Part shown: positions 4,865 to 61,672 of the stretch, piece after piece
Numbering within the stretch: the stretch's first letter is position 1
How the letters are laid out: each line of letters opens with the position of its first letter
Source: Blasia pusilla
Lineage: Eukaryota
Length of the DNA stretch: 64,000 bases
NCBI GenBank assembly: GCA_050084515.1
Contig: CM114271.1
Location: forward strand, 28,210,001-28,274,000
Reading direction: 5' to 3'
Position numbers and translations under genes: made by a program
Notes under the pieces: generated by a model
What the model was told of the DNA's origin: nothing
Database searches by the model: none
What the model saw: only the letters and a program-made list of their open reading frames with translations

Positions 4865-5660
4865 TTATATGCGTTGGTGATGATCAAGCACCTCTCAAAG
4901 TAGATAGAGTTTTTTGCATGTTTCGATAAGCTTGATGAGTGAGGGATGGACCTAAAATTGCTATGGTTGGCAATGAGATATGAGTTTAGTAGGCAAATAT
5001 CCTTGGGATCCTTTTCACCTTAGTTTTGATCTATGAACGAGATCCGAATTTACCCCTGGCCAATTTTCTTGATTCTACTGAGGTGTTGAACCTCGATAGC
5101 TATGATGTGTGGGTCATCAAGGTTCCCAAAGGTCAAAGACATACCAAAGAATCATATTGATTGTGCTTGAGAATCTGACAATTATAGATTATCGAGACAC
5201 ACTGAGGTATGTAAACATTTAAGGAGGATATTATTAATAGAGGGTTTTGAGTTTCCATCTGTAGACTATCTCTACTTACAAAAAATGGTGCCGAAAATTT
5301 TGGATGTGATAGCAACTTAGCAAGGTACATTATTTTAAGGGTATGCGAAGTCTTACCCTAGGGATTCTCCTCTTGGAGATGTTTGGACAATATGGTTGAA
5401 TGTGTGGGTTTATTTTTTTTGTGTTTGATTAATGACAATAATATATGTTTGTTAGCAATGAATATCCACATAACACTTTGGGGGATATTGGAGGTCCAGC
5501 CAAGCAGGTCAAGGATAACCCTTTGAGCATTAGGGCAACCTACAAGTGCACGTTTCCTCTTGATTTGGGCCCATTTAGAATCTATTTGAGAAACCTACTA
5601 TTTACCGTAAGTTTCTTATTTAGATAGAAAGAAAGTTACCCTTGGCCCGCTATTGTCCAT
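4865..5660 (+). mobile_element. Highly decayed 3' remnant of the DNMT/PHD Gypsy family (integrase fragment, repeat A, start of repeat B)
   Basis: 4865-5130 resembles the integrase DNA at 18110-18570. 5374-5475 resembles repeat A (starts TGGAGAT). 5480-5660 resembles repeat B. Confidence 0.55.
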
Positions 5661-8288: not shown

Positions 8289-10089
8289 GCCAAATTTTAG
8301 CACTTAAAACCTTTTACATAAAGTCGATAACAACAAGGGTTTCACACCTTCAAGTTGGATTTAGTTCAACATTTAAACAGATTTCTTCCGCTGTGACTCG
8401 CACTGCTAAATGGTACAAATTACAACGACGTGTTCTACTCTAAGTCTGAGTCCCACAACCGCACGACACCAATTGTTTCTGCAACCTAACTTTAACAACT
8501 CGATGGACATGTACACATAACCCCATGGTAGAAAACGGAAATTTTGTCCCTTGATCAAGTCTGTTTCCATCTTCTCCTATCCAAATTTCCATAGACTCTC
8601 AGACTAGATTCACCCAAGTTTGAACGTCGCTCATTTGAGGTAACGATGACTTTAGGTCCCACGCCACCACAAGTATGCAATATTGGGCGGCCTTAAGAGT
8701 TCGTCGAGGACATACAACACGAACAAACATGTTTACCGTAAGATATAAAAATAAACAATTTAACCAATTTGATAGGAACAATAGCAAACCTCGTCTAGTA
8801 AATTTGTTCCCAGTAAGTCCACCTTCGCTTCGTTTGGTAGCAAAATCCGATGTACTTCGTCCGAGCTCTTTTCAGCTGCGCACCCCTAGCTCTGCCTTTG
8901 GTAACTCAAGAGGTACTCCAAAGCTTTGCCAAATACATGCTCCATATAACTTACAGATTCCTATCCATTTTATCAAAGATTGGCCTACCATATCTCTCTA
9001 AAGTAAGAAAAATGTGTGTGGATGGCGGAAGAGCTGCAATGTTACTTTTACAGGTGTCCCTGCATATTTACATTCCAATCTTGTTGAAACACCTGATGGT
9101 GCTATTTTAGAAAGGGGCTTCCTTTTCAAGGGAGGCTTCACTTCTTCAAGAGGGGAGCTACTAAACTAAGTAACTCCTCCCATCTCGAATTACAGTGTAG
9201 ATAACAACTATTTTATTGTCTAAACTAAGCCACGATCAGAAATTAAACTTGATCAATTATGATGAAAAAATTCTTGTTTTTCTTCTCATTAAGAATTTTT
9301 TTCTTTTTCTCTTGTAAATTAAAATTTTTGTTGTAATTAAAGAAGTTGTTCTTCAACAAGAATATACACTAGTGCACAACCGCGCTCTCCACAAGATCAT
9401 TGGATCAACCACCATACACATTCAAAATAATTTCTTGCTATTTTTAAAATATTTTTTTCCCATATTATTATCAAAAATATTTTTGTGTAATCCAAGTGCT
9501 ATGTCTCAATCAAATGGGTGTTTGAAAATGAAGAAGGCGTTTTCCCATAATAATATAAATCATGAATTTATTGTCATATTCGATCACAGTTATGGAAATG
9601 AAAATAAAATAATTCAATATTTTGGTTGGATATTTGGGAAAATGAAAATTTCACTTAATGATAATTTTAGCTGAAATTTCTTTCAACCAAAGAATATTTT
9701 TTGCAATGAATTTGTAAAATTTAATATGAAAAAATGGCATAAAAATAACAGAGATAGATTTGAGGTTAATAAAATTTCACTTCAATTCAAGAAATTCATA
9801 TTTTTTGTCTTATAAATTTTTGGAAAAAAAATCCTTTTTGAACCCCCATGTCTTAGTTAAGAAAATAAAATAGTATTCATTCTTTTAAAATTTTTATCTG
9901 TGTCACAATTATTCTCTTTTGGTTATTTCTCATTTTCTTGAATATATTAATTTATTCTCCCTTGAAACAAAAATTGGAGATTGAATATTTAAATTTTTGT
10001 GCAAATTTTTTTTAATGAACAAAAATGAGTAATGTGGAAAAATAATGAATAGGAGGAGAACTTAGGAACATTGCGTAAAGATCCTTATT

Positions 10090-10810
10090 CTAAATCTTCC
10101 GTAGAGCACCTTCAAGGAGATTGGAAGATTTTCTCAAGAGGTCAAGAACACGGTTGCACAAAAACGGACAAGTGCATCCCTAAGACGGATATGGACACAC
10201 AAGTTTTGACATGTCCACAGACATGGGTTGCAAAAGTTCGGGCCCACACTTATAATTCATGGTGGAAGGTAGGGCAAGGACGTTCGGGGCAATAAGGGGG
10301 AAGAGAGTGCAGGTGGGAGGAGGGAAAAACAAGAAACTACAGATCACCAAGGCAAGTCGCGGATAAGAAAGAAGGGGGAGATTGGGCCCACATTCACAAG
10401 TCCTTATAAAACATGAACGTAAGTCCAAGGATATGGAGATGTCCGCGAACACGCAAATTTTCCATATGCAACCTTGGTCGAGGATGATGTATTGAGGATT
10501 CGAGTAACTTGAGAGAGTAGGTTTTAGTAGGTTTTCCCTTCGTTTTGGCTCATTCGGAGCTATATAGAGAAAACTACTATTTCACGTAAGTTTCTATTAT
10601 GGTTAAACTTAACTTTCTACTTTGAGAATTCATCCTTGACCCCCTGTAAAAGATCAAGAGCCAAGGAGGTAACTTCCAAGCATATGTTACCATGGAGAGG
10701 GCTTGGGGGTTTACCAAAAGACAAAGAGCCTTGGAGCTCATTCTATCTTTTTTGAACTTCTTGGCATGAGGCAACGGAGCTATGGTCCTCCTTGCCTTGT
10801 GAGATTTCTC
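10090..10810 (+). repeat. Repeat B (5' LTR-like unit) of the DNMT/PHD Gypsy family, interrupted by a MITE
   Basis: Similar to 19391-19860, 42878-43150 and the reverse complements of 51746-52276 and 61549-62116 (for example TCAAGAGCCAAGGAGGT and GAGCTCATTCT). Confidence 0.75.
10149..10476 (+). mobile_element. hAT-type MITE, copy 1
   Basis: TIRs CACGGTTGCA...TGCAACCTTG (9/10 match). Flanked by a degenerate 8-bp TSD GTCAAGAA/GTCGAGGA. Removing it restores the GAGGTCGAGGATGA of repeat B. Confidence 0.75.
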
Positions 10811-10829
10811 GCAATGTCCCCCACAAAGT

Positions 10830-12520
10830 TGAGCGGATGGATAGAGTCTTTCCAAAAGAGAGCACAAGTCCAAGCTGGTTTTCGACCATATCTTGGCCCT
10901 ACGTGTTCTATGGGAGAAATCTAAGGGCAATGGGAAAGCTTGGTATTGTGGTTTCATCTATTTGAGGAAAAAATTTGATACATGCCCTCGTAAGCTCTTA
11001 TGGGATATGCTGCAAACCATTGGAGTTCCAATAAATCTCCTAGCTACCGTGGCCACATTGTACCAATCCGTTTGGGCGAAAATCAAAGATTCTCAAACTC
11101 AAGAGATCTTGAGTAGTATGGGAGTCATTCAAGGTTGCTCTCTCTCCCCTACTCTATTTGGAGTTTTCATAGATGACATTGAGAAGTGGTTGGAGGAATG
11201 TGAAAGTGAAGGTGTGAATCTTGGAGACTTTGTTACCAAAGCTTTATTATATGCACATGATATCATATTACTAGCACAGGATGCCATTAGTTTACAGAAA
11301 AACCTTGACACTTTGGAATTTTTTGGTACAAAGAATCAGATGGAATTTAACATGGAGAAGTCTAAAGTCATTATAATGGGCATTATATCTAAGTTTTCGT
11401 TCCTTTAGAAAGGTCTATAAATAGAATAAGTGAAGAGTTATAAGTATCTAGGCATTGCTTTCTCTCATGACTATAGTTGGGTTGTTTGCCTTCAAAAGAG
11501 AGTAGAAGCAGTTTACAAAGCTCTATATTCGCTTTTAAATTAGTGTAGAAAAGCTCATCTTTTATCTTTAAGTCTCAGGAAGTTCTTATTTAGGAACTCA
11601 GTTGTCCATGTGGTCTTATTTGGGATCCAAGTTTGGGGCCCTACTTGCAAGAAAAGAGGTTGCTAGCGCGTGGAAAGGATGCAAAAGATTTTCTTACAAG
11701 AAGAATTGGGTGTGAGAATCCAAACTTCTTCTGCTATTCTTCTGGCGGAAACATGTTGTCTTCCTCTTGAGGCGGAAGCTCTCTCCTCGACCATCACTTA
11801 TATCACAAGGGTGAGATCTCTTAATATTTCTCGCCTCCCTCATCAAGCTTTACGAGCCATATGCTCAATAGGATGGATTACAGATGTGGTGACTAAGTCT
11901 ACAAAGTGGAATATGGCTGAACAAGATTGGGACTTGAAACTGGTGGCACTCCGCGAGCATCTACAGAAGCAATTTCTCAAGACTCTTTGGAGCAATACAA
12001 CCAGCGCACAAAAATGGAGTATTATCAACTTCATATTAATCCTATGCTTGTATAATATGAAAAAGGATACCTACTTGCTGGGCATCTTCACAAATGTATG
12101 AAGGCTCTTGACTTGCAGGCCAGGGATCTCTTGTTCATATTATACAAGCATAAGATTAACACTCCACTTTCTTACGTCATATTATCGCACGTCATAAGAC
12201 TGGGTCTCATAGACTAGGAATTGAGGAAGGAAGATGGCTAAACATTGATACAAATGAACAAATTTGTAGGTTATGTGATGTAGGAGGTATTGAGGATGAA
12301 GAGCATGTGTTTGTTACGTGTCCTAGGTATGAAGAGATTAGATAAGCTCATAAAATAGATGTGGGGAATTTCTACTCTTTACTACAACTAGTACCTTATG
12401 ATTTAGGTTGTTATATCGGGGATGTCATTATTCATTGCGCAAGTGGTGCTTTAGGCATTGACTAGGATAAGACTTATAGGGTCTTTTCATGTCTCGGTTT
12501 ATTACTTATATTTTTTTTTA
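10830..12520 (+). pseudogene. 5'-truncated non-LTR retrotransposon (RTE/RTEX-like LINE): RT plus C-terminal zinc finger
   Basis: RT motifs FIYLRKKFD, GVIQGCSLSPTLF, LLYAHD (YADD) and YKYLG. C-terminal TGSHRLGIEEGRW and CRLCDVGGIEDEEHVFVTC. Multiple in-frame stops. Confidence 0.85.
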
Positions 12521-12729
12521 GCCATTGGGATAGTTGCATTTTCTTGTCGGAGTTCTTTGGAAAGTTGAGGAGCATCCACGACTTCCATACGCACGTGGAG
12601 GAAAGTTTGCGAGAGGCATTTACTCACCTACGTTGGCTGATGAGTGTATCTCAAGGGGTGACCAAGGCCCTAATCATCTAGGCATGGTTTTGGTTATTGG
12701 AAGAAGATGTGTGGAAATAGGTGAGGGTC

Positions 12730-15700
12730 CCTAAGGGATGCAATAATCATATTGCGTACCTCACCTATGTTGAGAGATATCTTTGAGATGGCTAAGTTCA
12801 TTGAGCATAACATGGCCGAGGAGAATTGAGAAGCCATGAGTTACATGAGATATCTATCAAAGTTGCCTACACCACCAGTGCAACAATGTGTATCTTCAGA
12901 GAGGAATACGACACAGTGAGTTAAGGGGGGTAATCATGAGCATGTCCCACAACAACCTACGCCATCATATGCCAATGAGAAGCAACCATGAGTTGTTTGT
13001 TGGGCATGTGGTGGAGCCCATCTCCAACCTGATTACAACCATCACTTATAAGGGTAGTGGATGCGTGCCCACTAGGAGTGTTCCAGTGTGACCATTGTCA
13101 AGGATATGTTCATAGGCGCACTTGACATTTTAGCCTACATCTTGAGCTATGTTCACATCAAGGGACAAAGAGGGCACCACATAGAGTTGGGAGTCTGTTA
13201 GGGTCAGGGTGAGACCGAAGGTCATGCACTAGGTGATCCCATTGGAGGAAAAAGAGCTGAATTTTTCTATAAGAGAGGTGGATATGCCCGTGGAGGATGT
13301 GCATGTAGAGATGTGCTTCCTAAATGAGTCAAGGGGGATTAATGGCATGAGGCTAGGATGGCTGCTCCGATAGAGCAATTACAACAAAAACTTTTTAGGA
13401 TGGCGTTGAGGTTACCTAATGCCAAGTCAATGACATTGACCTCATATGTAATAGCTAGAGACAAGGTTGGATGTGTAGAGTTGAAAAGACGAAGACAACC
13501 GCTATCATTATCCGTGGAGTAGCCCTAGAGATGGTTTGAGGGAGGGAGGGGGAGCCAAGAAATAGACTAGGCTTCCTCAATTAGTCATTTACATTGTCCA
13601 ATGCAATGAGGATCCTAATCACACTTCTTGGAGGATGGATGTTGTTGGTATGAAACCACGATGGTCGATGGGAGAAGCAAGCACGATGACTCCTATTATT
13701 CATTTTCAGGCGGAGCCCTTATCGAATACGTTGTTGGGAGCGGCCATTGCTATGAATCGCACCCATTGGTCTTCAATCTAGGATGTTGTTACATTGGGAG
13801 GTACGCGCATCAAGGAGTTTTGGCTGGCTACTACGCTTTGTGAGCATGGAGATGGTGTTACTGCCTTGCCCTGAGAGCTTTTTACAGAGGAGATGGTGGA
13901 CTTGCCCTTGGAGCCTTTTGCTAAGGCCGTATATCTCAAATTGATGGTAGGTTGTAGATGGTACGACCCATAATAGATTGTGCCATGGTCTCTTCCATTT
14001 GGTGAGTCGAGGAGGTAGAGTGATTTTTCTACAATGTGTCTTGCTAGACTAAGGAGCACAACCCCTTATGTTGGGGAGGCGGCGTTTACAATATTGGGCC
14101 TGATTAATGTGGAGCATTTTCCATTCAACATATAGACATCCTTGGGTGGAGTGATTATGAGGTAGTTTATCCCTCCACATTGAGGTCGTGGTGAGGATTT
14201 GACCACAACATCTGTAAGATGAGTCTATGATGCGAGCCAAGGCAATAGTGACCAATGCAAAGGCCTATGACATCTTGGTTGGCGATGCAATGTTGTACCT
14301 GATGGATTTAACCCTCGATTATATGGAGGATTCAATCCTATGGAGCATGATGGCAGTAATATGACGGGTGACTACGCTTGTTAGCTGTTTGATTCATGAG
14401 TGGAGGGATCAAGAAACAATCAAGAGAGGTGATAACTCACACAACATTCAATATCGCCATCACTTGGCACAGTAGGGCAAGTCGATGAAAATAACACATC
14501 AATGGTTCATACCCCTACATGCTATAGAGAAAAGTGTTATGGCAGATATTCTGTTGAGGAGAGGTGCATTTTAGGGCTCAAGTCAGGAGCTTCAATGCTT
14601 AGCTGATAACCATGTGTAGATGGCATGGAGTGAGATCTTTGCTCCACAGCATGACAAGTCAATGGAGCCTTAGGTAGCAAGGAGTGTTTTGATGTCATCA
14701 TGTCACCCTTGGATACAACACTGATTGTATGGCACATCCAAGAGAAGGATACTAAATTGTTGGATCTCTTTGGAGGGATCAACCCTCGGTTGGTTGCTAT
14801 TTTGCAGGTTTGAGTGCATATGTAGTAGTATTTGTATGTGGAACATCTGAGGTTGCAAGGCACATCTCACTATGACATGTGGCGTAGTTGCAACCTCATT
14901 TTTCCAACCCAAAACCTTTGGTATCGGCCGTACGGAGTTACCAGCTAGAGTTTCTTATCGAGGGATATTTCCTTGCTAGGGATCAAATCAATGACCATTT
15001 GGAGGTTGGCCATGTGAGATCTGGTTGAGAATTGGATTGGATGAGGTGGTGGTTTATCTTACACTCGATCCATGTTGTTTTGGGAGATGATGAGGGTCTT
15101 GCGCCACTTGCAAAAAAATTGGTCCCTTTCTCCAACTTACGTTGTAGAGATTCTAGGTCGTGAGTGGTGTTGAGTACACATCAGGTTCATGAAAGTTGGC
15201 CAAAAGATGTTTTTAGATGCGGAAACTGCAGGTTCACGAGCACATCGTCTGCTTTTGTACTAGACCAACTTGGTGCCATATGAGATGTTGAGGGCGTCGT
15301 ATGCGAGAGTGGCGCGTCCCTGCCATTATTTTGTCGATTCCATTTTGGATCCTCGATGGCAATCACAAGTAGTGAGGCACAATGATCGACCTATGTTGAT
15401 GGTGGTCAACACGATTGGCAATCTAAGGGCAATCTTTCCCGCTTTTGAGATTTTTCCCGCTTCCTATGCGTATAAGGAGTTTGGTCTTGGCTTGGTTTGG
15501 GATGACCAAGTAGCTGCTAGAGCCCAACGTCAAGTAGCTGCTAGAGCCCAACGTCAATGAGAGAGAGTGAGCATTGGAGTTCTCCACAAGAGTGACAACA
15601 GTACCGTTACTATCACATGCATCTCAATCTCATGTCTGAGGACCTAAACTACTAGAAATGCATTCTCAACTTAGTACTAGGTAAGCAATATCAGATACAA

Positions 15701-18700
15701 TTGCAACATATGACCTCTGGTGCACTAGTTAGCCATGTATCTATTAAGACGGTTGAGGCAGTGGTTGGGGGTGATATTTGAGGAGATTGACACTTTAAAG
15801 ATGATCAAGAGAGACATCTTTGGACTTCTAGGGATGTGTTGTAGGTACATCAAGAAGTGGGGCAACCATAGGGGCGAGCTCCATCTCAAGGAGTATTAGG
15901 AGGTGAGAGATCCGACTTGGTTGTAGAGGAGAAACCAACTTCTATTGGTTGCAATAGGGTTGCAACATATATAGCAACCAAAACCATCTATGGTACCTAC
16001 CGTAGTCACAATGGCGATTTAGGAGTATGATATGGGCCCTAATTTGACAAGAGGAACGAGATACATCAGTCCCTTATGAGTCATAAGAGTTTTTTAGCAT
16101 TCAATATGCATGATTTGGGTACAATGAAGGGTCCAAGATTCTGCATTGAGTTGTCTAGCGACATGCTGATCTTTCAACCGCCCTACAAGTACAGTGATAG
16201 TAAGAGGGATGTGATTCATAGCAGAAGTTGACAGGTGCTTGAGACATGACAAGTGGAGATGTTGCGTAAAGAGTGTGCATTTGCCATTGTCATGCCCACC
16301 AAGAAGGATGGGCATGGCAATTGGACGAATAGGTCGATGTGTAGAGATTATCAACCTATCAATGCCATTCAATGGCTAGATAGGGTTTAATAGGTATGTC
16401 ATGCCCACTCCTAAGGAGACCTTTAATACTATTGGGCATTCAAAGGTCTAGAGTTCTAAAGATCTTTGAGATGAATAGCATGAACTCCCTATCAGATTTA
16501 AAGATAAGAAGAAGAAGACATTTTGCAAATTTTGGGCATCGATCCTCACGAGAAGAATTTTTTCTACCAATGGGCTCTTACCATCAGGGTTAAAGAAGGC
16601 CTTGTCAAAGTTTTAGAGGGTAATGGATAGGACCTTGGCTAGTCTAGATTTTACTAGATATTACATTAATGACATTGTAGTCTTTAGCGCCACAATTGAG
16701 GAGTATGAGGAACATCTAAAGGAGGTGTTCCGACAATTGCAGTAATATGGTTTTAAGCTGAATCTAGGAAATTACAAGTTCTTCTACGAAAAAATTGAGC
16801 ATTTGGCTCATAAAATATATCAAAGTAGCCTTGGTGTTCCATAGATGAAGGTAGGTGTTATCTCATGCGTTCCACGCCCTACAAATATGAGTCGAGTTCA
16901 TGCATTCATGGGATTGGAAAATTTATATCGACGGTACGTTTGATTTCTAAGCTACTAACCTTGATGAGCAAGGTGGATCTCAAGTGGTAGAGCGGGGATG
17001 AGAAAGAGAGAGCATTTCAGGTGCTCAAGGATAGATTGATGTTTGTGTCTATATTGAGCACACCTATCACAAGCCATCCTTTCCAATTGCACACAAATTA
17101 GAGTATGTTGGACCTTGGAGCAATGCTCACCCAACATGATGCTGAGGATAGAAAGTTCATGGTGCCTTGCGCTAGTCACTTGAATACAATTTCAGTGGTG
17201 AAGTATAGCTTGTATATGGATGAGTGTTTTGCTGCAATACATGATATCTTGCATTTTAGATGTAACTTATTCAGAAATCCCTTGACCATCATTACTGATC
17301 ATCAACCACTCAAGTGATTGATGTAGTCCGAAAGCTTACATGAAAACTAGCTATGTGGGTTTTATTGTTGCACGGATATGATTTCCAATTGTTAAATCAA
17401 CCAAGGATGCTCCACCATGATGTAGATTGGTTAATTCTTAACCCATGCTCGGATCATTAAGATGCAACTAGAGCTTGAAGGCATGGAGAGACTGATGAGG
17501 AGATGGTGTTTGGATGGCACGTGTCAACATATTTGGGTTTGTTCGCTATGGACAACCAAAGTGTTGGGACTTTGATGGGGAGGTCCAATGGAGGGCCCTT
17601 AGATCCATAGGTCGGCGAGAAGGTGACAGATAGTCAAGATATCAACAAGGATTGGGTTAGTCTTGCAATATTTGCATACTTGCAAGCTAGGTTGTGAGTA
17701 TAGGGGGTTTTAGAGAGCAAGACCATATCCCATAATAAGTCAGACGATTCCAACGGGAGGGAACACATATGGATGTCTACGAGTTTTAAAGGTAGTAGAG
17801 TATGCTTAGTGCCTCATACTTTATAAAGAGCACCATTATTGTAGCACATCCATAAGGAGTTGGAACACTTGAGAGTAAAGCAGACTTATAATTTGCTCCA
17901 AATATTGTACTAGTGGCAAGGTATGCACACTAATGTTCAGTAGGTATTTCCAAATATATGGTATGTCATCAAGTTGGAGCATTATTCTGATTCATTGAGT
18001 ACTCTGGCTCCACTATTGCACCCACTCATGATTATGGGTTTAGGCTATGTATGGAGTTCGGATTTTGCATGATCTTTATTTTTCACCGAGCGTCATAGTC
18101 ATTTTGTGGTGATGATGGTCAAGCACTTCTTAAAAGTAGATAGAGTTTCTTGCATTTTTTGATAAGCAAGTAAGGAAGTAGATCCTAGATCGGGTGTTGA
18201 GTCATTATGGCGTACCAATTGATATGTTAATGAACCATGGCATAGAGTTTCACAAGGAGTTTCAGACCTTGTATGTCCAAGTGTTTATTAACCACTGCAC
18301 TACTTTGCAAGATCACCCTAAGAAAAATGGACTAGCGGAGAGAAGTGTTAAAATAATGACGAGAGGTTTACGCAAGTATGGCTTGCACAGATATCACCTA
18401 GGTGATATCTACAATTGCCATGATTGATGATGGGATACAAATTTAGCAAGCAAACATCCTTAGTGTCTCTTACCTTACTTGTTGCTTTATGTACAAGATC
18501 CTCATTTATCTACAGTCATTTTTCATGATGCTAGTGAGGTGTTGAACCTTGACGATCATAATATAAGGATGTGAGCATGTTCTCAAAGGGTTGATCAAGT
18601 TATTTTGGAGAGTTATGCCCATGATCTTCAAGAACTTGGTGATTAAGCAACATCATGATATGTTGATGTATGAAACTTTTTGGGAATGTGATTATCGACC

Positions 18701-19073
18701 AATGATTTGGAGATTTTATCAAGGAGACTACATCTACTTCCAATGTTGGATGTGAAAGTAGGGCCCACCATCTTGAGAATATGCGAGGTATTGCCGTCCG
18801 GTGTTCTCTTCTTGAAGGGTCGTAATTTAATCGTTTAGAAGCACCATGTGCGTGACTATGGGCCAAGTCACCTTCTTAACATTGATGGTTAAATTAATAT
18901 GAGCTTAGCAGTAGTTCGTGTAGGCTTATATTGTATGTCATGTGGATATGCCCGCGGTGTAGCCACTATACTAGTTTTTTCATGGATGTTCGAGAGTGTG
19001 GCACTTGATGTGTTTGAAACTACCTCTCACTAGGGTTCCTTAGGGACGATGGACCTATTCTAGACGTACATAG
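12730..19073 (+). pseudogene. Decayed Ty3/Gypsy gag-pol: gag, protease, C5-DNA methyltransferase, RT, RNase H, integrase, PHD finger
   Basis: Gag knuckle remnants at about 12995-13130, protease VLLD*GAQPLML at about 14040, DNMT motifs at 14757-15650, RT YIND at about 16660, RNase H IITDHQPLK, integrase NGLAER, and PHD remnant CMSCG...GCSRVWHLMCLKLPLTRVP*GRW at about 18930-19060. Confidence 0.85.
14757..15660 (+). pseudogene. DNMT3/DRM-like C5 cytosine methyltransferase domain within pol (decayed)
   Basis: Motif I LLDLFGGI (14757), motif IV GGWPC (15001-15015), LFWEMMRVLRHLQ, motif VIII FLDAETAGSRAHRLLLY*TNL, and a motif IX-like ERE remnant. Colinear with 57036-57990. Confidence 0.8.
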
Positions 19074-19265
19074 AGAAGGTAACAGGTAGTCATAGATCTA
19101 GACTTGCATTGGTGACATGGATGACAAGAAGACGACTAATATTAATGGGGCCACATGAGCACTTGACCCTTTTGCTCTTAGCGTCCTAGAGATGTGTGTC
19201 ATAGTAGGTAAGGATAGATAGCTATATGGAGTTAGAGGGACCTAACCATCAGCTAAGGAGAGGAT

Positions 19266-20375
19266 TAGAAATATTCTCGTACATAATTGTCTCGTTGTTT
19301 ACATACCATGGATACGGTATCTTGTGTGTTTTTGTTTATAATTGGTGACAAGGATGTATGTTGTATAATAATATATATACGCATGATAATTTTCATATAG
19401 ATTTTAGGATGGATTAATGAGTATCCTTAAAGCACCTTCAAGGAGATTGGAGGACATACTCAAGAGGTTGAGGATGACGTGTTAAGGCCTCAAGTAACCT
19501 GAGAGAATAGGTTTCCCCTTGGTTTTGGCTCGTTTGAAGCTTTTTATAAAAATATCCTAATTGGAGTATATTTCTATTATGATTATAATTGATTTTCCAA
19601 TTTCGAAAGAAATCTTTGATCCCCCCATATTAAGTGAAGAGCCAATGAGATAACTTGTGAGCATACGTTACCATTGAGAGAGCTTGGGAGAGGGAATGGG
19701 GTATACCCTAAGAGAGGAAGCTTTGGAGCTCATTCTTGCTTTATTTAACCTCTTCGCATGAGGTGGCAGAGCTATGGTCCTCCTTATCTTATGAGTAACA
19801 CAAGTCTTTGATCAACAGATTGAGTTTGGAACTTTGGTTTGACATGAGAGAGATGGATTTTTTGTAAGAGCTTTAAAGTCATCTTAATTTATTGGGGATA
19901 TTTTGACAAGGTTGGATGTGGATAAAGTCCATGTCCGTGGACTTACGTTCGTCCGATGGAAGGACTTGTCACATCTTATTTTCACGCAGGTAGACTTCTA
20001 TCGCGTCGACGGCATAGAGAGTCAACTGTTGAGCCCTACATGTATCTCATCCCCCCCACTTGCCTCCATATTCCGTACTTTCCCGTTTCTTCCTTTCCCC
20101 ACCTTCACTCCCTCCTCCCTCGATAATTAATTTCCTATCCTCCCCTTCCTTGCCTTGCTCCACAAGCTATAAGTATGGGCCCCACTTCTAATACTAATTT
20201 TTTTGTAGACATGTCCGCGCTAAGGATGAACTTGTCTGTTTTTGTACAACCATGTATTTTGGTACACGAGCGCCTCAGTATTCAGATGATATAACTGAAT
20301 ATGGTATCTTGTGTGTTTGTGTTTATATGTGGTGACAAAAATTTATGTTGTGTAGCAATATGTATGCGCATGAAA
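19266..20375 (+). repeat. 3' terminal A-B-A repeat block of the + strand copy
   Basis: A 19266-19388 follows a purine tract, B runs about 19391-19860, and A' 19893-20375 is split by a MITE. Confidence 0.7.
19907..20254 (-). mobile_element. hAT-type MITE, copy 2 (same family as 10149-10476)
   Basis: Ends CAAGGTTGGA...TACAACCATG. TSD TATTTTGA/TATTTTGG. Terminal sequences are the reverse complement of copy 1. Confidence 0.75.
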
Positions 20376-27524: not shown

Positions 27525-29186
27525 TTAGGCATTTACAACATACTCTGCAAATGTGCTGATGCGGGTTGCAAGTTCGGGTGACAAGTGCGAAACTGCTCGC
27601 CTGTGATCACGACTGCGGTCCACCGTCAACATTTCCGCCACGTCTCGCATACTCCACCCTGCTGCTCTCAAAGTAGCTTGAAGGAGTTCGGCCTGTCTTG
27701 ACAGGGCAATTAGAATTGATTGTTTATCCGCTAAACAATCGTCGTACTTCTTGGCAGCGGGTCGCGGCTCCATCATGTCATCGATTTCATGCTCCTTCCA
27801 TCCTCCTCTCCGGAGACGGACGGTCATATCCTCCATGTAATCCATCATCCAATTTGGCATTAACGTGTTTCTATATTTCGTCTGACCCTGATCCTCCCAG
27901 CAGGGCGAAAAGTTAGCCAGATCCATATCCACCTTCTGAGCAGAAAACAAATTCTCAGACACAAGAATGTTCGACGATTGACGTTTCTCAGTAAGCTCGC
28001 TCCAAAACTCTATGCGCCGAGCCGACTTCGTCACAAAGGCCGGCGAATTCATCGAGAAATGGGCAAGGGTCTTGCTGGACAGGGGCGTGTCCTCAAAAAA
28101 ACTGAATCTAGAGACACAATCTTGGGTAGGGTTCTTTGCCACACCCGTCATTGATCGAGAAATGGTGCTACTATGTCTATGCGGATTGTAGTCATAACCT
28201 TTGGAGCTGGCTCGTCTGCCCAAATTATCCAAACTCTTGAAGAGGCCATCCGAGTGCTTGGAAAGAGAGTCCAGACTACGCCCCCATGACTCGAAATCCT
28301 TCTCCGTACCTCCCTCCCATTTTCTCTCGGTCTCGTCGGTGCCATTTTCCCCTAGGGCATCCGACCCACGCCGAGATGCACCATTTTCGTAGTGCCCTTC
28401 TTGCGTTTCATTTTCACCGCTTCTGATTGACAAAATGAAGTTTTCTTTTCCAGTGACTCTGCCTCTGTCCTTGAACAAATCTCGACCACTGCCCATTCTT
28501 GAAATGACCATTCTGTTTCCACCATCCTCGATCCAGTCATTCAAGTCTGGCAAATTCGTCGGGGGCTGATAGTCATGCGGAACGAAAAGCTCTCGCTGGA
28601 AGAAATCTGCGACATCGACGCCACAAATGAGCACGTCTCTGCGATGTACAAAAAAGATCGGGTTGCCGGCGATGTTGGGAGAAGTAGGGATATAGCAATG
28701 GCTATACACTGGCACCAAAGTTGCAACTTTCCTCAGAGCTACCAGAGCTATTCGGACTGCTTGGTCCGTGTCCACAGGCCGAGGACCCCATTGCTTCCAC
28801 CAAGCATTTCCTCTGGCCACTTCGTACAGAAGCCCAGCTATGGGAAGATCAAACCTCATCTGGAGCTTATGATTGTCATGACGCCAATTCGGGAAGCCCT
28901 CTCCGACTGGAAGGCCCTCCTGCAGAATAGCCCTCAAATCAGGAGGAAATGTGAAACAAAAGGCTGCTTCCACTCTAGCGAATTCCTCATCTGTGAGGCC
29001 TTTGTCGATGGGGACACGGCAATTTCTCAAGTGGTCTATGACAGTGCGCGCGTAAGCAGCAAATGAGACGTAACAACGACGACCCCCACTACTGGGTGGA
29101 GTAGCACCAGCATGCGCTCGAGCCGAGAGGCGCTTCAGGCCCGCGACGTGCGCCTTCGAACTAATCCGGTGCCCCACGTCCACCAT
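27525..29186 (-). CDS. Plant SMI1/KNR4-like domain protein (At3g50340/At5g67020-type family), 553 aa, intronless
   Basis: Longest intact ORF. ATG at 29186 gives MVDVGHR, like the family's MVDV start. Conserved core GLTDEEFARVEAAFCFTFPPDLRAILQEGLPVGEGFPNWR, LVPVYSHCYIP..P..AGNPIFFV, RRIEFWS and LRRGGW/LRAAGWS. The ORF track start at 29225 is a non-ATG extension. Confidence 0.9.
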   Translation of the reverse strand: MVDVGHRISSKAHVAGLKRLSARAHAGATPPSSGGRRCYVSFAAYARTVIDHLRNCRVPIDKGLTDEEFARVEAAFCFTFPPDLRAILQEGLPVGEGFPNWRHDNHKLQMRFDLPIAGLLYEVARGNAWWKQWGPRPVDTDQAVRIALVALRKVATLVPVYSHCYIPTSPNIAGNPIFFVHRRDVLICGVDVADFFQRELFVPHDYQPPTNLPDLNDWIEDGGNRMVISRMGSGRDLFKDRGRVTGKENFILSIRSGENETQEGHYENGASRRGSDALGENGTDETERKWEGGTEKDFESWGRSLDSLSKHSDGLFKSLDNLGRRASSKGYDYNPHRHSSTISRSMTGVAKNPTQDCVSRFSFFEDTPLSSKTLAHFSMNSPAFVTKSARRIEFWSELTEKRQSSNILVSENLFSAQKVDMDLANFSPCWEDQGQTKYRNTLMPNWMMDYMEDMTVRLRRGGWKEHEIDDMMEPRPAAKKYDDCLADKQSILIALSRQAELLQATLRAAGWSMRDVAEMLTVDRSRDHRRAVSHLSPELATRISTFAEYVVNA

Positions 29187-31439
29187 TTCTCCCCAGTTAA
29201 AATTCCTTCCTTTCCAAACCAACACTTCTCACGTCATGCTCATCGGTTGACTACCGAGTGTTTATCTCCACGTTTGGATGCTTCGCTTCTCTATTAGATA
29301 CGGTCTTTGGACTGTCGCCCATATCCCCAACAGGCCGTCCGCTTCCGATCCTTCCAAGCTCAGCCTGACCTCCAAAGCCACTCCACTCTGAAACAAAAGA
29401 ACCTTCAATCTTCTCCTAAATCCACGCCCTGCTGCCCTCTAGAACGAAAGCATCCGAGACACGGAAACACGGAGAATCGAACTCTCACCCGTGAGACCAT
29501 CGCCCAGGGCAGTCCTCACTTTCTTCAACGGTAGGAACGCCAAAAGTAAGAATTCATGGAGTCGAATACAGCTCGGCTCCAGAATAGTCGCCCATGCACT
29601 TATGTACCATGGTATCCCAATTACAGCCGCTCATGGTGTGCGGAGCGGTTTCCACGGCAGCCATTCCGCCAACATTCGTCTGATGAACCACACGGACGTC
29701 GTTGTCTGTCCTCAAGAAGAAGTAACGCACTCGATTGAGCACTTGCGCCGATGACCACCGCTGCGGGCACAGAACTCCACGGCCTAAAAACTCACAAACA
29801 ACCACAGCCGACAATGTGACGAAAGGCCACACCGAAATCCAGATGACAAGTATGCCAACGACCCAACGATCGGAAACTTCTGCGCGCTCCGGGAGAAGTG
29901 ATATTGTAGAGTCGAGCGAAGGAGTGGAAGAGGACTAGAAGCCGATAGATGCCAAGCTGTGCGAGAGAAGCGTGGGATGAAGCGAACGAAGAGGGATGCT
30001 GGCGAATTAATTCGAACCAACGAGCCACGTGAGAACGGAAACAAACGAAGTCCCCTTCCCAGGACGGATTGGAGGACGGATCTAACGGGAACCTGAATCA
30101 CACGGGCTCAAGCTGTCTCCGCCTGCCCTGGCTTGGTTGGGTCCGGTTTGGCTTGGCTTTAGCTCGGGTTGCTTGGCTGCCGGCTTCCTCCGGCTTCCTC
30201 CCTCCCACTCGACTCTCTTTCTAGAAAAAGCGCCTCCGCTGTTGAAGAAGCAGGCGAGAGGCGACGAGGAGAAACCAACTACTTACTTACTACTGTACAA
30301 CTCGTTCAGATGTACGCGAGAAAAGAAAAGACCTATCTTCCCCCTACTAATGTCCGCGCAACAATTACCCTACCTACGACGGTCCCGCATCCAGCGGCGC
30401 GTCCATGAAGAGGCCTGCATTCAGAAAACACAGAGCCGCAGCGCAGCAGTGATCAGTGCAGTGCAACCTTCACCACCGTCTCAGCCGAGCCTGATAAAGC
30501 CACAACGGACCGCAGACAAACAAGACAGAGTCAGGATGGGGGTGTGCGCAGAGGAGGCAGCGAGCGAGAGAGAAAGAGAGGAGGAGCTGAGGGCAGGCAG
30601 ACGTTGGGACTGCCCTCAGGCCCCATGACAAAGTACTTACGCGCGACCGGACTACTCTCTCTCTCTCTCTCTCAGGGTTCCAACACCCCAACAGTGCCTG
30701 TCCACGTGTCATGTCATCACATACATCACCTGTACATGCATCATGGATAGACGGATGGATGGTCACGTACCTGCCTGGCTTCCCTGCACCTTATCGCAAT
30801 TCGCAACGGACGTCTCTCTCTCTCTCTCTCTCTCTCTCTCCTTCCCGTCTCCTTCGCATACTGTACCTTACTTTCCGGGGCGAGACGGGGACCGGCGTGA
30901 ATTCGGACGAGATGAGACTTCCTCGCATGCGCCATTGCGCCCATCGCACGAGTCGGTGGATCCTCTCAGGCTTGTTATTAACCACTTCAATGCTTGGGTG
31001 CGATCTTGTCTCCTTCTCATTCGCATCGGACGAACGCAGCGGCGTCCTCACCTCCACCGGTACTGCGGTCGCCGTCAAGCATGACGCATTTCGTTTGGTA
31101 CCTTCACCGCTTTGTTCTAGAATTTCTCTCGCTACAAACACACACACACTCATAAAACGCACATATAATAAGGACGGGTTCATACCTCTACTACAGGGCT
31201 GGATGTTTTTCTTTATTACTTCGATTGTCCCTTGGAATGACCTGATTCCCTTCTGCAAACCAGAGGATTTTGAAACCCTTTTGGGCTAAGAATACCTGCT
31301 TTAATGAATAAGGAAAGATGCACTTTCGATAGAAACGAGTGATGGAAAACCCATCGGAAGTACAAAAGAGGGGGACTCAAAGAGTCAAAACCTGAAGGCC
31401 ACAACACGACCAGAAAAGGAAGAAGGGGGCATTCCCCCC

Positions 31440-46200: not shown

Positions 46201-48250
46201 AGGAGATGGGTCCGCACCATGAGTTTATCAGTGTGACCATTGTCAATGGTATGGTCATACACATGCGCAGTGTTTAAGCCAATACCCTGAGTTACACCCC
46301 AATCGAGGGCTAGAGAGGGCACCTGAGCGAGTTGGCATTCTAGGTGGGTCTAGAGGTCATGCGCCAGATGGTCTCGTTGGGGGATGAGGAGTTGGATTTC
46401 CCCGAGTGGAGTTTCCCGTGGATGAGGTAGAGGTCTATCACCTAGACGCGTCGAGGGAGACGTCGGGTGTGAAGCTCAGATGGCTGCTCCGATACAGCAA
46501 ATTCCCCTAAGGCATTGAGGTTACCCGATGTCGGATAAGTGGCATTGATGTTTGATGGAGTAGCCAGAGACATGGAGGATCCTCTACAGCTCGAGGCATC
46601 CTTTGTTGCTACGCTTGGAGCAACTAAAGAGTTGGATCCACATAGAGGGAAGGCCATGAAACAAACTAGGATTCCTTAGTCTTTTACTTTGTTCGAGGTG
46701 ATGAGGACTTATTGATGGGTCCTGATCATAATTCCCGGAGAGCTCATGTTGTTGGTATGCAAGCACGGAGTGGGATAGGAGAAGTAAGTGCGACAACTCC
46801 TAGTGCTAGTGCTCAAATGGAGCCCATGTCGAGTATGCTATTGGGGATGGCCACTACAATGTACCGCGCCCCATTATTTTCTGCTTCCAATGTTATGATG
46901 TTGGGAGGTACGCCCGTTGAGGTTTTCCGGTTGGCTGTTGCGCTATATGCACGTGGAGTTGGTGTTCTTGTGTCATGATTAGAGTTGATCACAGATGAGG
47001 TGGTGGACCTGCCCTTGGAACTTGTGCTCGGGCCGTCCACCTCAGATTCATGGCATGCTGTGACTGCCAGGATGGCAAAGATGCCCTCTAGACCCGCGAT
47101 AGAGCTCGTCATGATGTTGCAAGGAGTTGATTTTCTGGATAATTGAGGAGAGGTATTCCATATGGTTAGTCTAGGAGATACACTTTTTTTCCCCCATCGC
47201 ATCTTGATGGATTTTGAAGTGCAACCCCTGATGTTGGGGAAAGTAGCATTTACAGGGTTGGGCCTAATGGGGACCGATGTGGAGCGTTGCCCATTCAGGA
47301 TACAAACATCCTTGGATGGAGTGAATAGGACGCAATTTTGTCAGCGGACAAGAGGTCGTGGTAAGGATTCTTCCAGGATATCCATCAAATAAACCCATGG
47401 TACTAGCCAAGGCGATAGTGATTGATGCTATTGGGTATGCAAAGGTCTTTAGTTCGATGGATCTTCGAGTCGGATATCCTTATTGGAGGACAGGCAAAAG
47501 ATGGCATTTAGGGCCATCGATCCTTACGAAAAGGATTGTTTGTACCAATGGCGGTTCTTACCATTTGGGATAAAAAATATCCTGGTAGAGTTTCAGAGGG
47601 TCATGGATAAGAACTTGGCAGGTTTGGATTTTGCTAGGTATTATATGAATGACATTGTAGTACCACGGTTGAGGACCATGGACACTAGGAGAAGGTGTTT
47701 AGAAAATTGCAGTTACATGGGCTGAAGTTACATCTAGGCAAGTGCAAGTTCTTCTATGACCAAATTGAGTACCTGAGTCATACAATATACCCAAGTGGCC
47801 TTGGTATGCATCAATCAAAGGTAGAGGCTATCTCAAGCATTCCATGCCCTATAGATGTGAGTCGAGTTTGTACATGCATGGGATTTGCAATCTTCTATTG
47901 ACATTAGGTCAAGGATTTCAGTTTGATTATGAAGCCACTAACCTTGCCGACCAAGGTGGATGATCAGTGGTACTTGGGGGATGAGTAGGAGAGAGCATTT
48001 CAGTTGCTCAAGGATAGGTTGACGTCCGTGCCCATAATGAGGAGATCGATCACGGGCGTCCTTTCCAGTTTCAGGCATATTTGAGCATGTTGGGGCTCCG
48101 TGCGATGCTCATCGAGAAAGACGGTGAGGGTAGAGAGTTTTTGGTGGCTTGCGCTAATTTCTCGAAGAATGTTGCAGGGGCCAAGTATAGCTCGTATAAG
48201 GGTGAGTGTTTGGTTATAGTGTGGATTCTTGCGCATTTTAGATGTTATTT
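42878..48250 (+). mobile_element. DNMT/PHD-family Gypsy copy: partial B (ends CTACA at 43309), leader, gag, protease, then a deletion into RT/RNase H
   Basis: Gag similar to 49030-50200, protease RILMDFEVQPLMLG, RT fragments LDFARYYMND and LHGLKLHLGKCKFF, RNase H YSSYKGECL. (GA)n at 43154-43226. Confidence 0.8.
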
Positions 48251-48469
48251 ATTCGGCTACTGCCGCCGCCTAGCATTGCTCAGAGCCGCGCTCAGCAGTT
48301 GTCCATCCTTTGGTTGCCATTTCCGCCATTACGGAGTGGAGTTTCTTCCACAACCATCGTTGTTTCTCTGACTTGCACCGCCACCACGTACTTTGGTTTG
48401 GCCGCCACCGTCATCGCTAGTGCCACACCGAACCGTTGAACTTGCACCGCACATCAAGGAGGTTTGAGT

Positions 48470-55230: not shown

Positions 55231-55232
55231 TC

Positions 55233-57990: not shown

Positions 57991-58199
57991 GATCCCATCG
58001 CTCGCTCTCTCTCGTTGGCATTGGGCTCCACCAACCACTGAACCTAGTCATCCCAAACCAAGCCAGGACCGGCCTCCTTGTATGCATAAGAAGCGGGAAA
58101 ACTCACAAACGTGGGCAAGGCTGCCCGTGGTCTGCCTAAACGTGATGCAGGAACTCCAAATCCACGCTCACATAGCGTAGCGGCCAGCCGAAAAGCCTC

Positions 58200-61597: not shown

Positions 61598-61599
<2 letters not shown>

Positions 61600-61670: not shown

Positions 61671-61672
<2 letters not shown>

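Follow-up and report, generated by a model that had tools for sequence, protein, structure and literature searches.

Since plants silence transposons chiefly by cytosine methylation, it is paradoxical that a transposon should encode a de novo methyltransferase of its own. The purpose of such a transposon-borne DNMT has been a standing question since the 2018 report of KnitGypsy-Dnmt3 from Klebsormidium nitens, a Gypsy element whose Pol ORF includes a DNMT3-related domain (de Mendoza et al. 2018, PMC5890265). According to the main text of that paper, the K. nitens members were placed in a divergent Dnmt3-related clade, their copies showed a Ka/Ks below 0.2, and the acquisition was placed 'in the K. 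nitens lineage'. The KnitGypsy-Dnmt3 domain produced no de novo methylation in yeast, a result that the authors considered inconclusive, as human DNMT3B failed too, and the K. nitens methylome was described as ordinary and plant-like despite the presence of such elements (PMC5890265). Two further retrotransposons with a cytosine methyltransferase, SymbioDIRS-Dnmt3 and SymbioLINE-Dnmt, are described from Symbiodinium in the same source, and the SymbioDIRS domain carried out de novo CG methylation in yeast (PMC5890265). These belong to the DIRS and LINE classes and to another eukaryotic supergroup, and their captures were independent according to the authors; on this description, they are set apart from the family studied here (PMC5890265). 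In the texts searched, a single charophyte alga was the only example named from the plant lineage.

The DNA analyzed here is a stretch of 64,000 nucleotides (the window) from Blasia pusilla (GCA_050084515.1, contig CM114271.1, positions 28,210,001 to 28,274,000), a liverwort. A host ORF at 27528-29228 (minus strand) is 73% identical to a protein of Marchantia paleacea, 58% to one of Riccia and 55% to one of Calypogeia, and an initial annotation of the window was thus right to call the host gene land-plant-type. The same annotation had proposed that the window contains a Gypsy retrotransposon encoding a DNMT3-like methyltransferase between protease and RT.

RESULTS

Element copies in the window

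Four copies of the element (A to D) were delimited, with the following features.

10098-19853, plus strand: copy A, DNMT-bearing Ty3/gypsy element in heavy decay (self-BLAST)
10098-10803, plus strand: copy A 5′ LTR in two matching pieces (10098-10142 and 10476-10803), repeating 19424-19853
10845-12345, plus strand: LINE-like (non-LTR) RT fragment inside copy A, upstream of gag (named by eye)
12562-13955, plus strand: copy A gag region (64% nucleotide identity to gag of copies B, C and D; tblastn with P0158 residues 96-423)
13987-14431, plus strand: copy A aspartic protease region (tblastn with P0158 residues 618-736, E 6e-10)
14685-15660, plus strand: copy A DNMT3-type C5 methyltransferase domain (motif reading, tblastn, hhalign, stop count)
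16034-17475, plus strand: copy A RT and RNase H (tblastn with P0167 and P0014)
17804-19052, plus strand: copy A integrase with a C-terminal PHD-finger remnant (18984-19052)
19424-19853, plus strand: copy A 3′ LTR, direct repeat of the 5′ LTR
44690-48260, plus strand: copy C, mid-RT fused to gag and protease (self-BLAST, tblastn)
48474-51746, plus strand: copy D, gag and protease, ending about 45 residues before the DNMT domain, at the start of the copy B LTR
51747-62104, minus strand: copy B, sister copy, with LTRs at 51747-52264 and 61554-62104
52600-53870, minus strand: copy B integrase (PF17921, PF00665) and C-terminal PHD finger (Pfam)
about 52600-52719, minus strand: copy B PHD finger (PF00628, 33.5 bits)
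55644-56833, minus strand: copy B RT (PF00078, 96 bits) and RNase H (PF17917, 121 bits) (Pfam, tblastn)
57039-58043, minus strand: copy B C-terminal part of the DNMT domain (post-IV helix, motifs VI to X) and linker to RT, in one frame
57993-58147, minus strand: copy B duplicated piece, the region before and including motif IX, standing in place of protease and DNMT motifs I to IV

The LTR pairs of copies A and B are direct repeats with 70.9% identity over 340 columns and 77.8% identity over 553 columns, respectively. Inspection of the inner edges of copy B's LTRs by eye revealed no recognizable PBS or PPT; the copies are decayed and the LTR ends inexact. Copies A and B are about 70% identical to each other and hold the DNMT domain at the same position, while 13864-15063 of copy A is without counterpart in copy B. 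The Pol order RVT_1, RT_RNaseH, Integrase_H2C2, rve was obtained for copy B by Pfam and the same order for copy A by tblastn. As read from the sequence, the Gag-Pol order is gag, protease, DNMT3-type methyltransferase, RT, RNase H, integrase and PHD finger.

DNMT sequence was kept between protease and RT in two of the four window copies, and the other two are deleted or truncated there. The protease region of copy A has 73% nucleotide identity to 51057-51505 of copy D. For copy C, tblastn placed P0167 residues 27-197 at 46829-47347 and residues 829-874 at 47525-47662; the internal deletion takes the rest of the protease, the DNMT domain and the RT N-terminus. We rejected the reading of copy C as an ancestral form without a DNMT: since the junction also lacks the end of the protease and the start of RT, copy C is a deletion derivative.

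The region as a whole is a nest of broken elements. In the LINE-like fragment, three ORFs read like RT (10845-11408, 11667-12101 and 12160-12345).

Methyltransferase motifs and their decay

The motifs were read at the following positions (asterisks denote stops).

14757-14780, plus strand: copy A motif I, LLDLFGGI (frame 3)
15001-15015, plus strand: copy A motif IV, GGWPC (frame 1)
15075-15095, plus strand: copy A LFWEMMR (LFWEM helix between IV and VI)
15216-15248, plus strand: copy A motif VIII, DAETAGSRAHR, then TNLVPY at 15264-15281
15544-15582, plus strand: copy A motif IX remnant, EPNVNERE*ALEF (frame 1)
15613-15642, plus strand: copy A motif X remnant, SHASQSHV*G
57927-57947, minus strand: copy B LFWEMLR
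57867-57884, minus strand: copy B motif VI, YILENV
57735-57785, minus strand: copy B motif VIII, DAASVGS*AHRPRLWWT
57423-57476, minus strand: copy B motif IX, KPNANKRERAMGFPPGLT
57360-57395, minus strand: copy B motif X, RCHVLGQAMDLN

The ordered C5-methyltransferase motifs I, IV, VIII and IX that had been noticed in copy A, between protease and RT of a Gypsy element, were thereby recovered, and motif X could be added to the series (14757-15660, plus strand). The minus-strand sister supplies motifs VI, VIII, IX and X, as had also been claimed. Motif coordinates ascend in order in both copies. Motif VI (ENV) is gone from copy A, where its site (15138-15158) reads YVVEILG, and the frame offset of motif IV reflects a pair of local frameshifts. 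The copy A domain contains about 10 stops altogether, all of them TGA or TAG: 8 are in frame in the frame-3 stretch (one of these underlies the stretch read in frame 1) and 3 in the frame-1 stretch. At least three frameshifts, a strong CpG depletion and a longest sense ORF of 98 aa complete the picture of this copy. Copy B decayed less (longest sense ORF, 264 aa), and its motifs VI to X share one frame with a TGA at 57762-57764, inside motif VIII, as the sole stop. Copies A and B are non-functional relics and long dead.

Homology searches nevertheless placed both copies. In tblastn searches against the window, the Marchantia protein P0158 matched 14685-15503 of copy A with 40% identity over 292 aa (E 4.6e-44) and copy B with 54% identity over 272 aa (E 5.8e-80). 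The copy A read-through (X at stops) aligned to the family profile over 263 columns (hhalign probability 99.9%, E 1.1e-36), and a phmmer search with copy B against 1.84 billion representatives returned 760 matches at E ≤ 0.001, 31 of them at E ≤ 1e-30. Direct Pfam scans stayed below the PF00145 gathering cut-off of 22 bits: a 93-aa piece of copy B reached 11.4 bits (E 0.21), and neither the window translation P0001 nor the copy A read-through gave a PF00145 match. The window copies are therefore decayed PF00145 members by their tblastn and hhalign matches and not by Pfam score.

Relationship of the domain to DNMT3

Whereas the window translations fell below the cut-off, the PF00145 assignment expected from the initial annotation was borne out in less damaged relatives. 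The cut-off was passed by relatives L017 (49 bits), L003 (36 bits) and L015 (31 bits), by Marchantia P0158 (35.6 bits) and by Klebsormidium P0081 (58.4 bits). Scores above it were obtained in four of five long relatives and in 6 of 10, 6 of 8 and 4 of 4 members of further sets, as well as in 4 domain-holding ORFs (6 scanned) and both of 2 locus ORFs. In L017, the nearest near-intact relative, motifs I, IV, VI, VIII, IX and X are all present.

Searched against PDB sequences, the family profile matched DNMT3A best (91.7 bits, E 4e-25), followed by DNMT3B (82 bits), plant DRM (63 and 51 bits), M.HhaI (41 bits) and DNMT2 (21 bits); none of the 57 PDB matches at E ≤ 0.01 was a DNMT1 chain. Copy B itself reached DNMT3A only at an E value of about 0.19 by phmmer. 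The family profile and DNMT3A align collinearly over motifs I to X, and the domain is therefore not permuted. An AlphaFold model of L017 (pLDDT 83.8) was compared with known structures by Foldseek: the rows listed down to rank 50 were all DNMT3A, DNMT3B or DNMT3C, and the best match had an E value of 7e-20 and a target TM of 0.81-0.84. By score ranking, motif order, predicted fold and the published Klebsormidium tree, DNMT3 is the nearest group to the domain, ahead of DNMT1/CMT, DNMT2, DRM and bacterial enzymes, a placement that is a score ranking and not a rooted phylogeny.

Of DNMT3 and DRM, whose resemblance was noted at the outset, DNMT3 is the better match by profile and model. Plant DRM shares the DNMT3-related catalytic fold and forms the second-best group in the PDB profile search, but it is circularly permuted, and only its motif I-V half aligns (profile positions 98-239), whereas the window copies and their relatives run from I to X. 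The host DNMT3 enzymes (mammalian DNMT3A/B/C; MpDNMT3b, Mp5g09290, of Marchantia) have the motif order I to X in common with the family, and DNMT3A/B/C are its best profile and fold matches. They differ in that DNMT3A is about 21% identical to the family domain (structural alignment of the L017 model), that no PWWP or ADD was found by Pfam in the scanned polyproteins, and that host DNMT3 is a stand-alone multi-exon gene, whereas the family domain is embedded in a retrotransposon Pol. Among the listed matches of three protein searches (best 150; 38; 120 of 234), there was no host DNMT3 or DRM sequence; the best 120 of 234 matches to the third family profile look like family members by names, identities and Pfam labels.

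Position in Pol, phylogeny and selection

The domain occupies a fixed in-frame position in pol, as the initial annotation had supposed, and is not an exon captured at one locus. Protease-DNMT or DNMT-RT adjacency was found in 51 of 200 family proteins. P0014 is a single ORF of 2188 aa running gag-protease-DNMT-RT-RNase H-integrase; L017 has gag-protease, DNMT and RT-RNase H-integrase in one frame with 2 stops; partial orders are seen in Klebsormidium P0081 (zf-CCHC, protease, DNMT) and Marchantia P0167 (DNMT, RT, RNase H). The full layout recurs in Klebsormidium, Closterium, Sphagnum, Calypogeia and Marchantia. A sister group (68 of 200 family proteins) has the DNMT directly before the integrase (RNase H-DNMT-integrase-PHD); this branch is present in chlorophytes (Scenedesmus), and its intact ORFs are as long as 3329 aa.

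In a domain tree without a host DNMT3/DRM root, copy B fell into a 21-row clade (support 100) with Marchantia, Calypogeia and Sphagnum, with the Closterium and Klebsormidium clades outside it. All 43 rows of the protease-DNMT-RT layout, together with K. nitens and copy B, are separated from the rest of the tree by a branch with support 99. The lineage with this layout appears to extend from Klebsormidium and Closterium to the mosses and liverworts, with the RNase H-DNMT-integrase branch as its probable sister.

Among diverged relatives, Nei-Gojobori dN/dS over the domain was 0.17 between L017 and L003 and 0.16 between L017 and L015, with dS near saturation (1.7) in these informative pairs, while the linker after the domain gave 0.57-0.65. 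The close pair L003 vs L015 had a dN/dS of 0.84, as expected from decay after insertion, and dS between copy B and its relatives was saturated (pS 0.76-0.81), so that no ratio was computable. The dN/dS check that had been suggested spoke for selection among the diverged relatives. We consider it probable that the domain functions, or once functioned, as an enzyme under selection.

KnitGypsy-Dnmt3 is the closest described system. Like the window family, it has a non-permuted DNMT3-related domain inside a Gypsy Pol ORF, it groups with copy B on one side of the tree, and purifying selection on the domain is common to it and to the relatives of the window copies. Its member P0081 (KFL_013780020; zf-CCHC, protease, DNMT) is a homologue of copy B (phmmer 7.8e-24, tblastn 3.7e-26). 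Its host, however, is a charophyte alga and not a liverwort, and an identity of about 34% was found with the Klebsormidium domain. The LTRs of the window copies are ordinary direct repeats, whereas the K. nitens repeats are DIRS-like in arrangement according to a figure legend (PMC5890265). A PHD finger follows the integrase in the window copies, while 'PHD' has 0 occurrences in the main text of PMC5890265. A chromatin reader is likewise fused to the integrase C-terminus in chromoviruses; there it is a chromodomain, which directs integration (cited in bioRxiv 10.1101/2021.11.30.470311), whereas the reader of the window family is a PHD finger (PF00628).

Possible roles of the domain and alternative explanations

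We consider it very probable that the region is the decayed DNMT3-type domain of a Ty3/gypsy LTR retrotransposon with the lineage and layout of KnitGypsy-Dnmt3, live members of which might methylate themselves. In live members, the enzyme would be made within Pol, beside the enzymes for cDNA synthesis and insertion, and would place de novo 5-methylcytosine on the element's own new cDNA or on the fresh insertion. Within the family reading, we put this self-methylation step forward tentatively, as a possibility a little short of an even chance.

The domain could instead be kept because it acts not on the element's own cDNA but on the chromatin of the host, whether at the integration site, close to it or throughout the genome; it might, for example, mark the landing site or disturb host silencing. 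In the 68 sister proteins with the DNMT directly before the integrase, the enzyme would sit in the integration complex; the integrase C-terminus has a conserved PHD finger, which is a fold that reads histone tails; and effects on insertion-site chromatin and the host methylome are discussed in the main text of PMC5890265. We regard this role as rather unlikely, as the methylome of K. nitens is ordinary although its genome harbors such elements.

A function apart from DNA methylation appears improbable; RNA methylation, binding to DNA and a structural part in Pol processing are the candidates. Such a function would fit the inactivity of the Klebsormidium domain on DNA in yeast, a negative that its authors themselves called inconclusive. 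It would also fit the catalytic motif IV of 36 of 123 family domains, which has EC where PC is canonical; the chemistry of these family members could be altered. However, 103/123 domains have a recognizable motif IV dipeptide with Cys at its end, the catalytic signatures HR.R..W (108/123) and ERE (112/123) are widely kept, and the profile is far nearer to DNMT3A than to the tRNA enzyme DNMT2.

It is very hard to uphold that the region derives from the host, either as a piece of a DNMT3 or DRM gene or as an exon captured a single time, and simply adjoins retrotransposon debris. The sub-threshold Pfam scans of the window and the nesting of broken elements would be compatible with it; yet two copies only about 70% identical have the domain at the same position, the adjacency to protease or RT recurs in several plant and algal genera, single ORFs from gag to integrase enclose the domain, and MpDNMT3b of Marchantia is a separate gene, Mp5g09290 (bioRxiv 10.1101/2021.02.12.428880). 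Chance resemblance in decayed sequence, which the shortness of the individual motifs and the other frame of motif IV might suggest, is refuted by the tblastn and hhalign E values of copies A and B and has a negligible probability.

The family in land plants

The relatives in Marchantia, Calypogeia and Sphagnum extend the range beyond a charophyte alga, as had been anticipated, and, with those in Closterium, argue for an acquisition that, on sequence comparison, would be older or wider than 'the K. nitens lineage'. The streptophyte Gypsy-DNMT3 kind is known; the land-plant range is new, in that no statement of it was found in the literature searched, where, with supplements and subscription journals outside the scope, no paper named liverwort or moss copies. 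Most known copies of the family are dead: an ORF of at least 400 aa on the match strand was found in only 6 of 44 bryophyte-type metagenome loci. In Marchantia polymorpha, at least 16 database entries belong to the element type, mostly annotated as hypothetical proteins; the entries come from three annotation sets, and distinct loci may be fewer. The M. polymorpha copies form a tight cluster, and since their terminal branches measure 0.003-0.08, the family may have been active recently in this species. A broader proposal, which we judge possible but not likely, is that Gypsy-DNMT3 elements are an old green-plant retrotransposon lineage in which DNMT3 as methylation writer is combined with a histone-reader fold, the PHD finger, possibly with recent activity in Marchantia. 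If this is true, what a transposon-encoded DNMT does becomes a question that can be put to a land plant amenable to genetics. As the window and its relatives show, the element type is present in land plants, among them M. polymorpha, a tractable host for function tests.

The direct value of the window is that of a pointer to the family and of an example of decay with a strong GC-to-AT bias and CpG loss. An excess of G over C on the sense strand was considered as a further decay signal and rejected; it is common to the sense strands of all four copies and looks like a family trait.

Four copies of one Ty3/gypsy family

Self-BLAST of the window resolved four copies (A to D), all of one retrotransposon family. 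Copies A and B were ~70% identical, with B the less decayed; its longest sense open reading frame (ORF) was 264 amino acids (aa), versus 98 aa in copy A. Pfam searches on open pieces of copy B identified RVT_1 (96 bits), RT_RNaseH (121 bits), Integrase_H2C2 (67 bits), rve (41 bits), and, downstream of the integrase, a PHD finger (33.5 bits). DNMT sequence was kept at the same place in two of the four copies (A and B); C and D are deleted or truncated there, and no intact protease-reverse transcriptase (RT) junction lacking the domain was found among the four.

Retrotransposon features of the window (coordinates, strand, description)
~10098-19853, +, copy A; LTRs present; gag, protease, DNMT stretch, RT, RNase H, integrase
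10845-12345, +, LINE-like reverse-transcriptase fragment inside copy A, between 5′ LTR and gag; assigned by eye
13987-14431, +, copy A protease
14757-14780, +, copy A motif I, LLDLFGGI
15001-15015, +, copy A motif IV, GGWPC; frame 1, flanks in frame 3
15075-15095, +, copy A LFWEMMR
15216-15248, +, copy A motif VIII, DAETAGSRAHR, then TNLVPY
15544-15582, +, copy A motif IX remnant, EPNVNERE*ALEF
15613-15642, +, copy A motif X remnant
44690-48260, +, copy C; protease joined to mid-RT
48474-51746, +, copy D; ends after the protease at the start of the copy B LTR
51747-62104, −, copy B
57993-58147, −, copy B duplication of sequence from around motif IX; ~130 bp, in place of protease and motifs I to IV

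Three-frame translation of 13900-16600 combined with a motif search placed the copy A motifs exactly where the initial annotation had read them, and the later motifs that it had ascribed to a minus-strand sister copy were recovered in copy B, which spans the post-IV helix through motif X in a single frame with one TGA. Copy A has no motif VI, the corresponding site reading YVVEILG. Its DNMT stretch carries eight stops in the frame-3 part and three in the frame-1 part, all 11 being TGA or TAG, and at least three frameshifts. The counterpart of copy A 13864-15063 (protease, motifs I to IV) is absent from copy B.

Before motif IX of copy A, a 24-bp unit stands in tandem (15514-15555, +), with LLEPNV read twice; a duplication just before motif IX is common to copies A and B at the same spot, possibly caused by slipping of the reverse transcriptase between templates. 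Related-element debris was observed at 62097-63430 (−), where an RNase H fragment (91% identity with the one in copy B) is fused behind gag-like ORFs, and at 4949-5314 (+), an integrase C-terminal fragment.

The LTR pairs are only 71% (copy A) and 78% (copy B) identical; therefore, both insertions are old. The CpG observed/expected ratio was 0.44 for copy A, 0.71 for copy B, and 0.88 for the host gene. Over 5778 aligned sites (A 12562-19448 versus B 52230-60500), G in B faced A in A at 393 sites (125 in reverse), and C in B faced T in A at 293 sites (127 in reverse). This asymmetry indicates a strong GC-to-AT load in copy A, as expected of methylated DNA, and we infer methylation as its cause. 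On the sense strand, G exceeds C in all copies, with a GC skew mostly of ~+0.1 to +0.2 sense-wise (10001-20000 and 44001-52000 for the plus-strand copies, 52001-62000 for the minus-strand copy), which suggests a family trait rather than the decay of one copy.

The Pol-borne domain is a DNMT3-type methyltransferase

The Pfam C-5 cytosine DNA methyltransferase profile (PF00145; gathering cut-off, 22 bits) gave 11.4 bits (E 0.21) on a 93-aa piece of copy B and no match on either the window translation P0001 or a copy A read-through with X at stops. Against PDB sequences, the best that phmmer of copy B reached was E ~0.19, for a match to DNMT3A split into two collinear segments. Against 1.84 billion representatives, the same query matched 760 proteins at E ≤ 0.001, 387 at ≤ 1e-10, and 31 at ≤ 1e-30. 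Relatives scanned in three sets exceeded the PF00145 cut-off in 4 of 5, 6 of 10, and 6 of 8 cases, the misses being C-terminal fragments, two damaged models, and P0025 (20.1 bits), and every locus ORF holding the domain passed. The PF00145 check proposed initially for a family consensus was thus borne out by the near-intact natural relatives used in its place and not by the window translations, which stayed below the cut-off. A Marchantia protein (P0158) aligned by tblastn with copy A (40% over 292 aa; E 4.6e-44) and copy B (54% over 272 aa; E 5.8e-80), and hhalign of copy A with the family alignment gave a probability of 99.9% (E 1.1e-36). Homology thereby settles the methyltransferase identity of the window domain, with window translations that do not pass PF00145.

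A family profile of 22 sequences, searched against PDB sequences (E ≤ 0.01), matched DNMT3A best (91.7 bits; E 4e-25), followed by DNMT3C and then DNMT3B (82 bits). Plant DRM scored 63 and 51 bits, in alignments limited to its motif I-V half, M.HhaI scored 41 bits, and DNMT2 scored 21 bits; no DNMT1 chain was among the 57 matches. Since the DNMT3A alignment is collinear from motif I through X, the domain is non-permuted, unlike DRM. The domain of L017 (L017:3195-4508), the nearest near-intact relative on a metagenome contig, was modeled with AlphaFold (24-row alignment; pLDDT 83.8, pTM 0.77), and each of the Foldseek rows listed among the best 50 was DNMT3A, B, or C (top match, E 7e-20, target TM 0.81 to 0.84, ~21% identity). 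As no host DNMT3 or DRM sequence was among the matches listed in the family protein searches to provide a root, assignment of the domain as DNMT3-type is based on score ranking, motif order, fold, and the published tree placing the Klebsormidium members (PMC5890265).

Relatives in land plants share the position of the domain

The one clear host gene examined (27525-29228, −) is an intact single-exon ORF (27528-29228) of 567 aa encoding a Knr4/Smi1-like plant protein, 73% identical to that of Marchantia paleacea, 58% to Riccia sorocarpa, 55% to Calypogeia fissa, and ~40% to mosses/vascular plants. This sequence marks the host as a Marchantia-type liverwort. For the DNMT domain, named relatives came from Calypogeia fissa, Sphagnum fallax, S. 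troendelagicum, Closterium sp. NIES-68, and K. nitens (KFL_013780020); Marchantia polymorpha contributed at least 16 database entries, mostly "hypothetical protein," spanning three annotation sets. No vascular-plant entries were among the matches listed. The domain order was zf-CCHC, protease, DNMT in Klebsormidium P0081 and Closterium P0027 and DNMT, RT, RNase H in Marchantia P0167; in P0014, a single 2188-aa ORF runs from gag through integrase with the DNMT between protease and RT. Together with copies A and B, these orders uphold the reading of a DNMT3-like domain in a fixed Pol position, and the host gene and the Marchantia, Calypogeia, and Sphagnum relatives uphold the suggested land-plant range.

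One relative, P0331 (52% identical to the L017 domain), carries the label [quoted passage not shown] and comes from a metagenome-assembled genome; its probable source is a eukaryotic contig misplaced in a bacterial bin.

Gypsy-DNMT3 elements have been described in K. nitens (PMC5890265) and are mentioned as present in "streptophytes" (PMC12344493; bioRxiv 10.64898/2026.05.21.726589). The main text of PMC5890265 contains none of the words "Marchantia," "Physcomitrella," "Sphagnum," and "liverwort," and no description of land-plant copies was found in the open-access main texts searched, including under Marchantia gene identifiers and MpDNMT3 and among citing articles in which Marchantia is mentioned. 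The window element is therefore a further member of Gypsy-DNMT3, which adds land plants to the known hosts and widens the picture of the lineage beyond "the K. nitens lineage."

Selection and proposed role of the domain

A scan of metagenome contigs confirmed 110 relatives, of which 80 were kept. Only 6 of the 44 bryophyte-type loci (L001-L044) had any match-strand ORF of ≥ 400 aa; L017 is nearly intact, with gag-PR, DNMT (PF00145, 49 bits), and RT-RH-INT in one frame with two stops. Nei-Gojobori estimates were made over the domain and over the linker after it.

Selection estimates for pairs of bryophyte-type loci
L017 vs L003: dN 0.28; dS 1.66; dN/dS domain 0.17, linker 0.65
L017 vs L015: dN 0.27; dS 1.70; dN/dS domain 0.16, linker 0.57
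L003 vs L015 (close pair): dN 0.052; dS 0.062; dN/dS domain 0.84, linker 0.65

The ratios of the diverged pairs are rough because dS is near saturation. For copy B against the same three loci (pN 0.26 to 0.29), pS was saturated (0.76 to 0.81), and no dN/dS is therefore given. The pattern fits a domain selected while lineages were active and decaying neutrally once inserted; for Klebsormidium copies, a Ka/Ks of < 0.2 is reported (PMC5890265).

The identity and type of the domain are established, as are its constant position in Pol and the conservation seen among diverged relatives. In live elements, the enzyme would be produced within Gag-Pol, adjacent to those that synthesize and integrate the cDNA, and could methylate cytosines de novo on new cDNA or a new insertion. 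In live members, the domain is likely to function as a DNA methyltransferase, and we tentatively propose that it acts mainly on the cDNA or insertion of the element itself. Self-methylation has been proposed for DIRS elements in PMC5890265, which lists host-DNA mimicry, deaminase protection, setting of insertion chromatin, and self-limitation as possible benefits. The same article reports CG methylation in yeast by Symbiodinium DIRS domains and none by KnitGypsy-Dnmt3, a result that its authors judged inconclusive.

Two Pol layouts

An unrooted tree of 123 domain rows (every named family protein, any other whose domain is nearly complete, and copy B) was computed by IQ-TREE quick search (LG+G4, SH-aLRT support). 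One branch (support, 99) splits all 43 protease-DNMT-RT rows from all 55 RNase H-DNMT-integrase rows; the 25 rows without an assigned layout occur on both sides. The protease-DNMT-RT side comprises Klebsormidium, Closterium, unnamed, and bryophyte clades, the last (21 rows; support, 100) including 11 Marchantia rows, Calypogeia, Sphagnum, and copy B, whose nearest row is Calypogeia P0156 (62% over 212 columns). The clade order looks like the host phylogeny, a resemblance that by itself does not test for vertical descent.

The sister group, which accounts for 68 of 200 family proteins, carries the domain further along Pol (RT, RNase H, DNMT, integrase, PHD). Some of its ORFs are intact, the longest reaching 3329 aa, and the chlorophyte Scenedesmus sp. 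PABB004 contributes entries called "pol"; examples of the group are the loci L045-L053 (L049:1865-11851, L050:3-5993) and the proteins P0013, P0025, P0031, P0034, and P0078. No description of this layout was found in the searched texts. The motif IV dipeptide was EC, not the canonical PC, in 36 of the 123 domains (7/43 protease-side, 22/55 integrase-side, and 7/25 unassigned), with the cysteine kept, and SC in three.

In the window, a PHD finger follows the integrase at 52600-52719 (−) and 18984-19052 (+), in the place where chromoviruses bear a chromodomain. The finger is conserved in the bryophyte-type loci L003, L007, L012, L018, L023, L025, L027, and L043 and in the RNase H-DNMT-integrase sister group.
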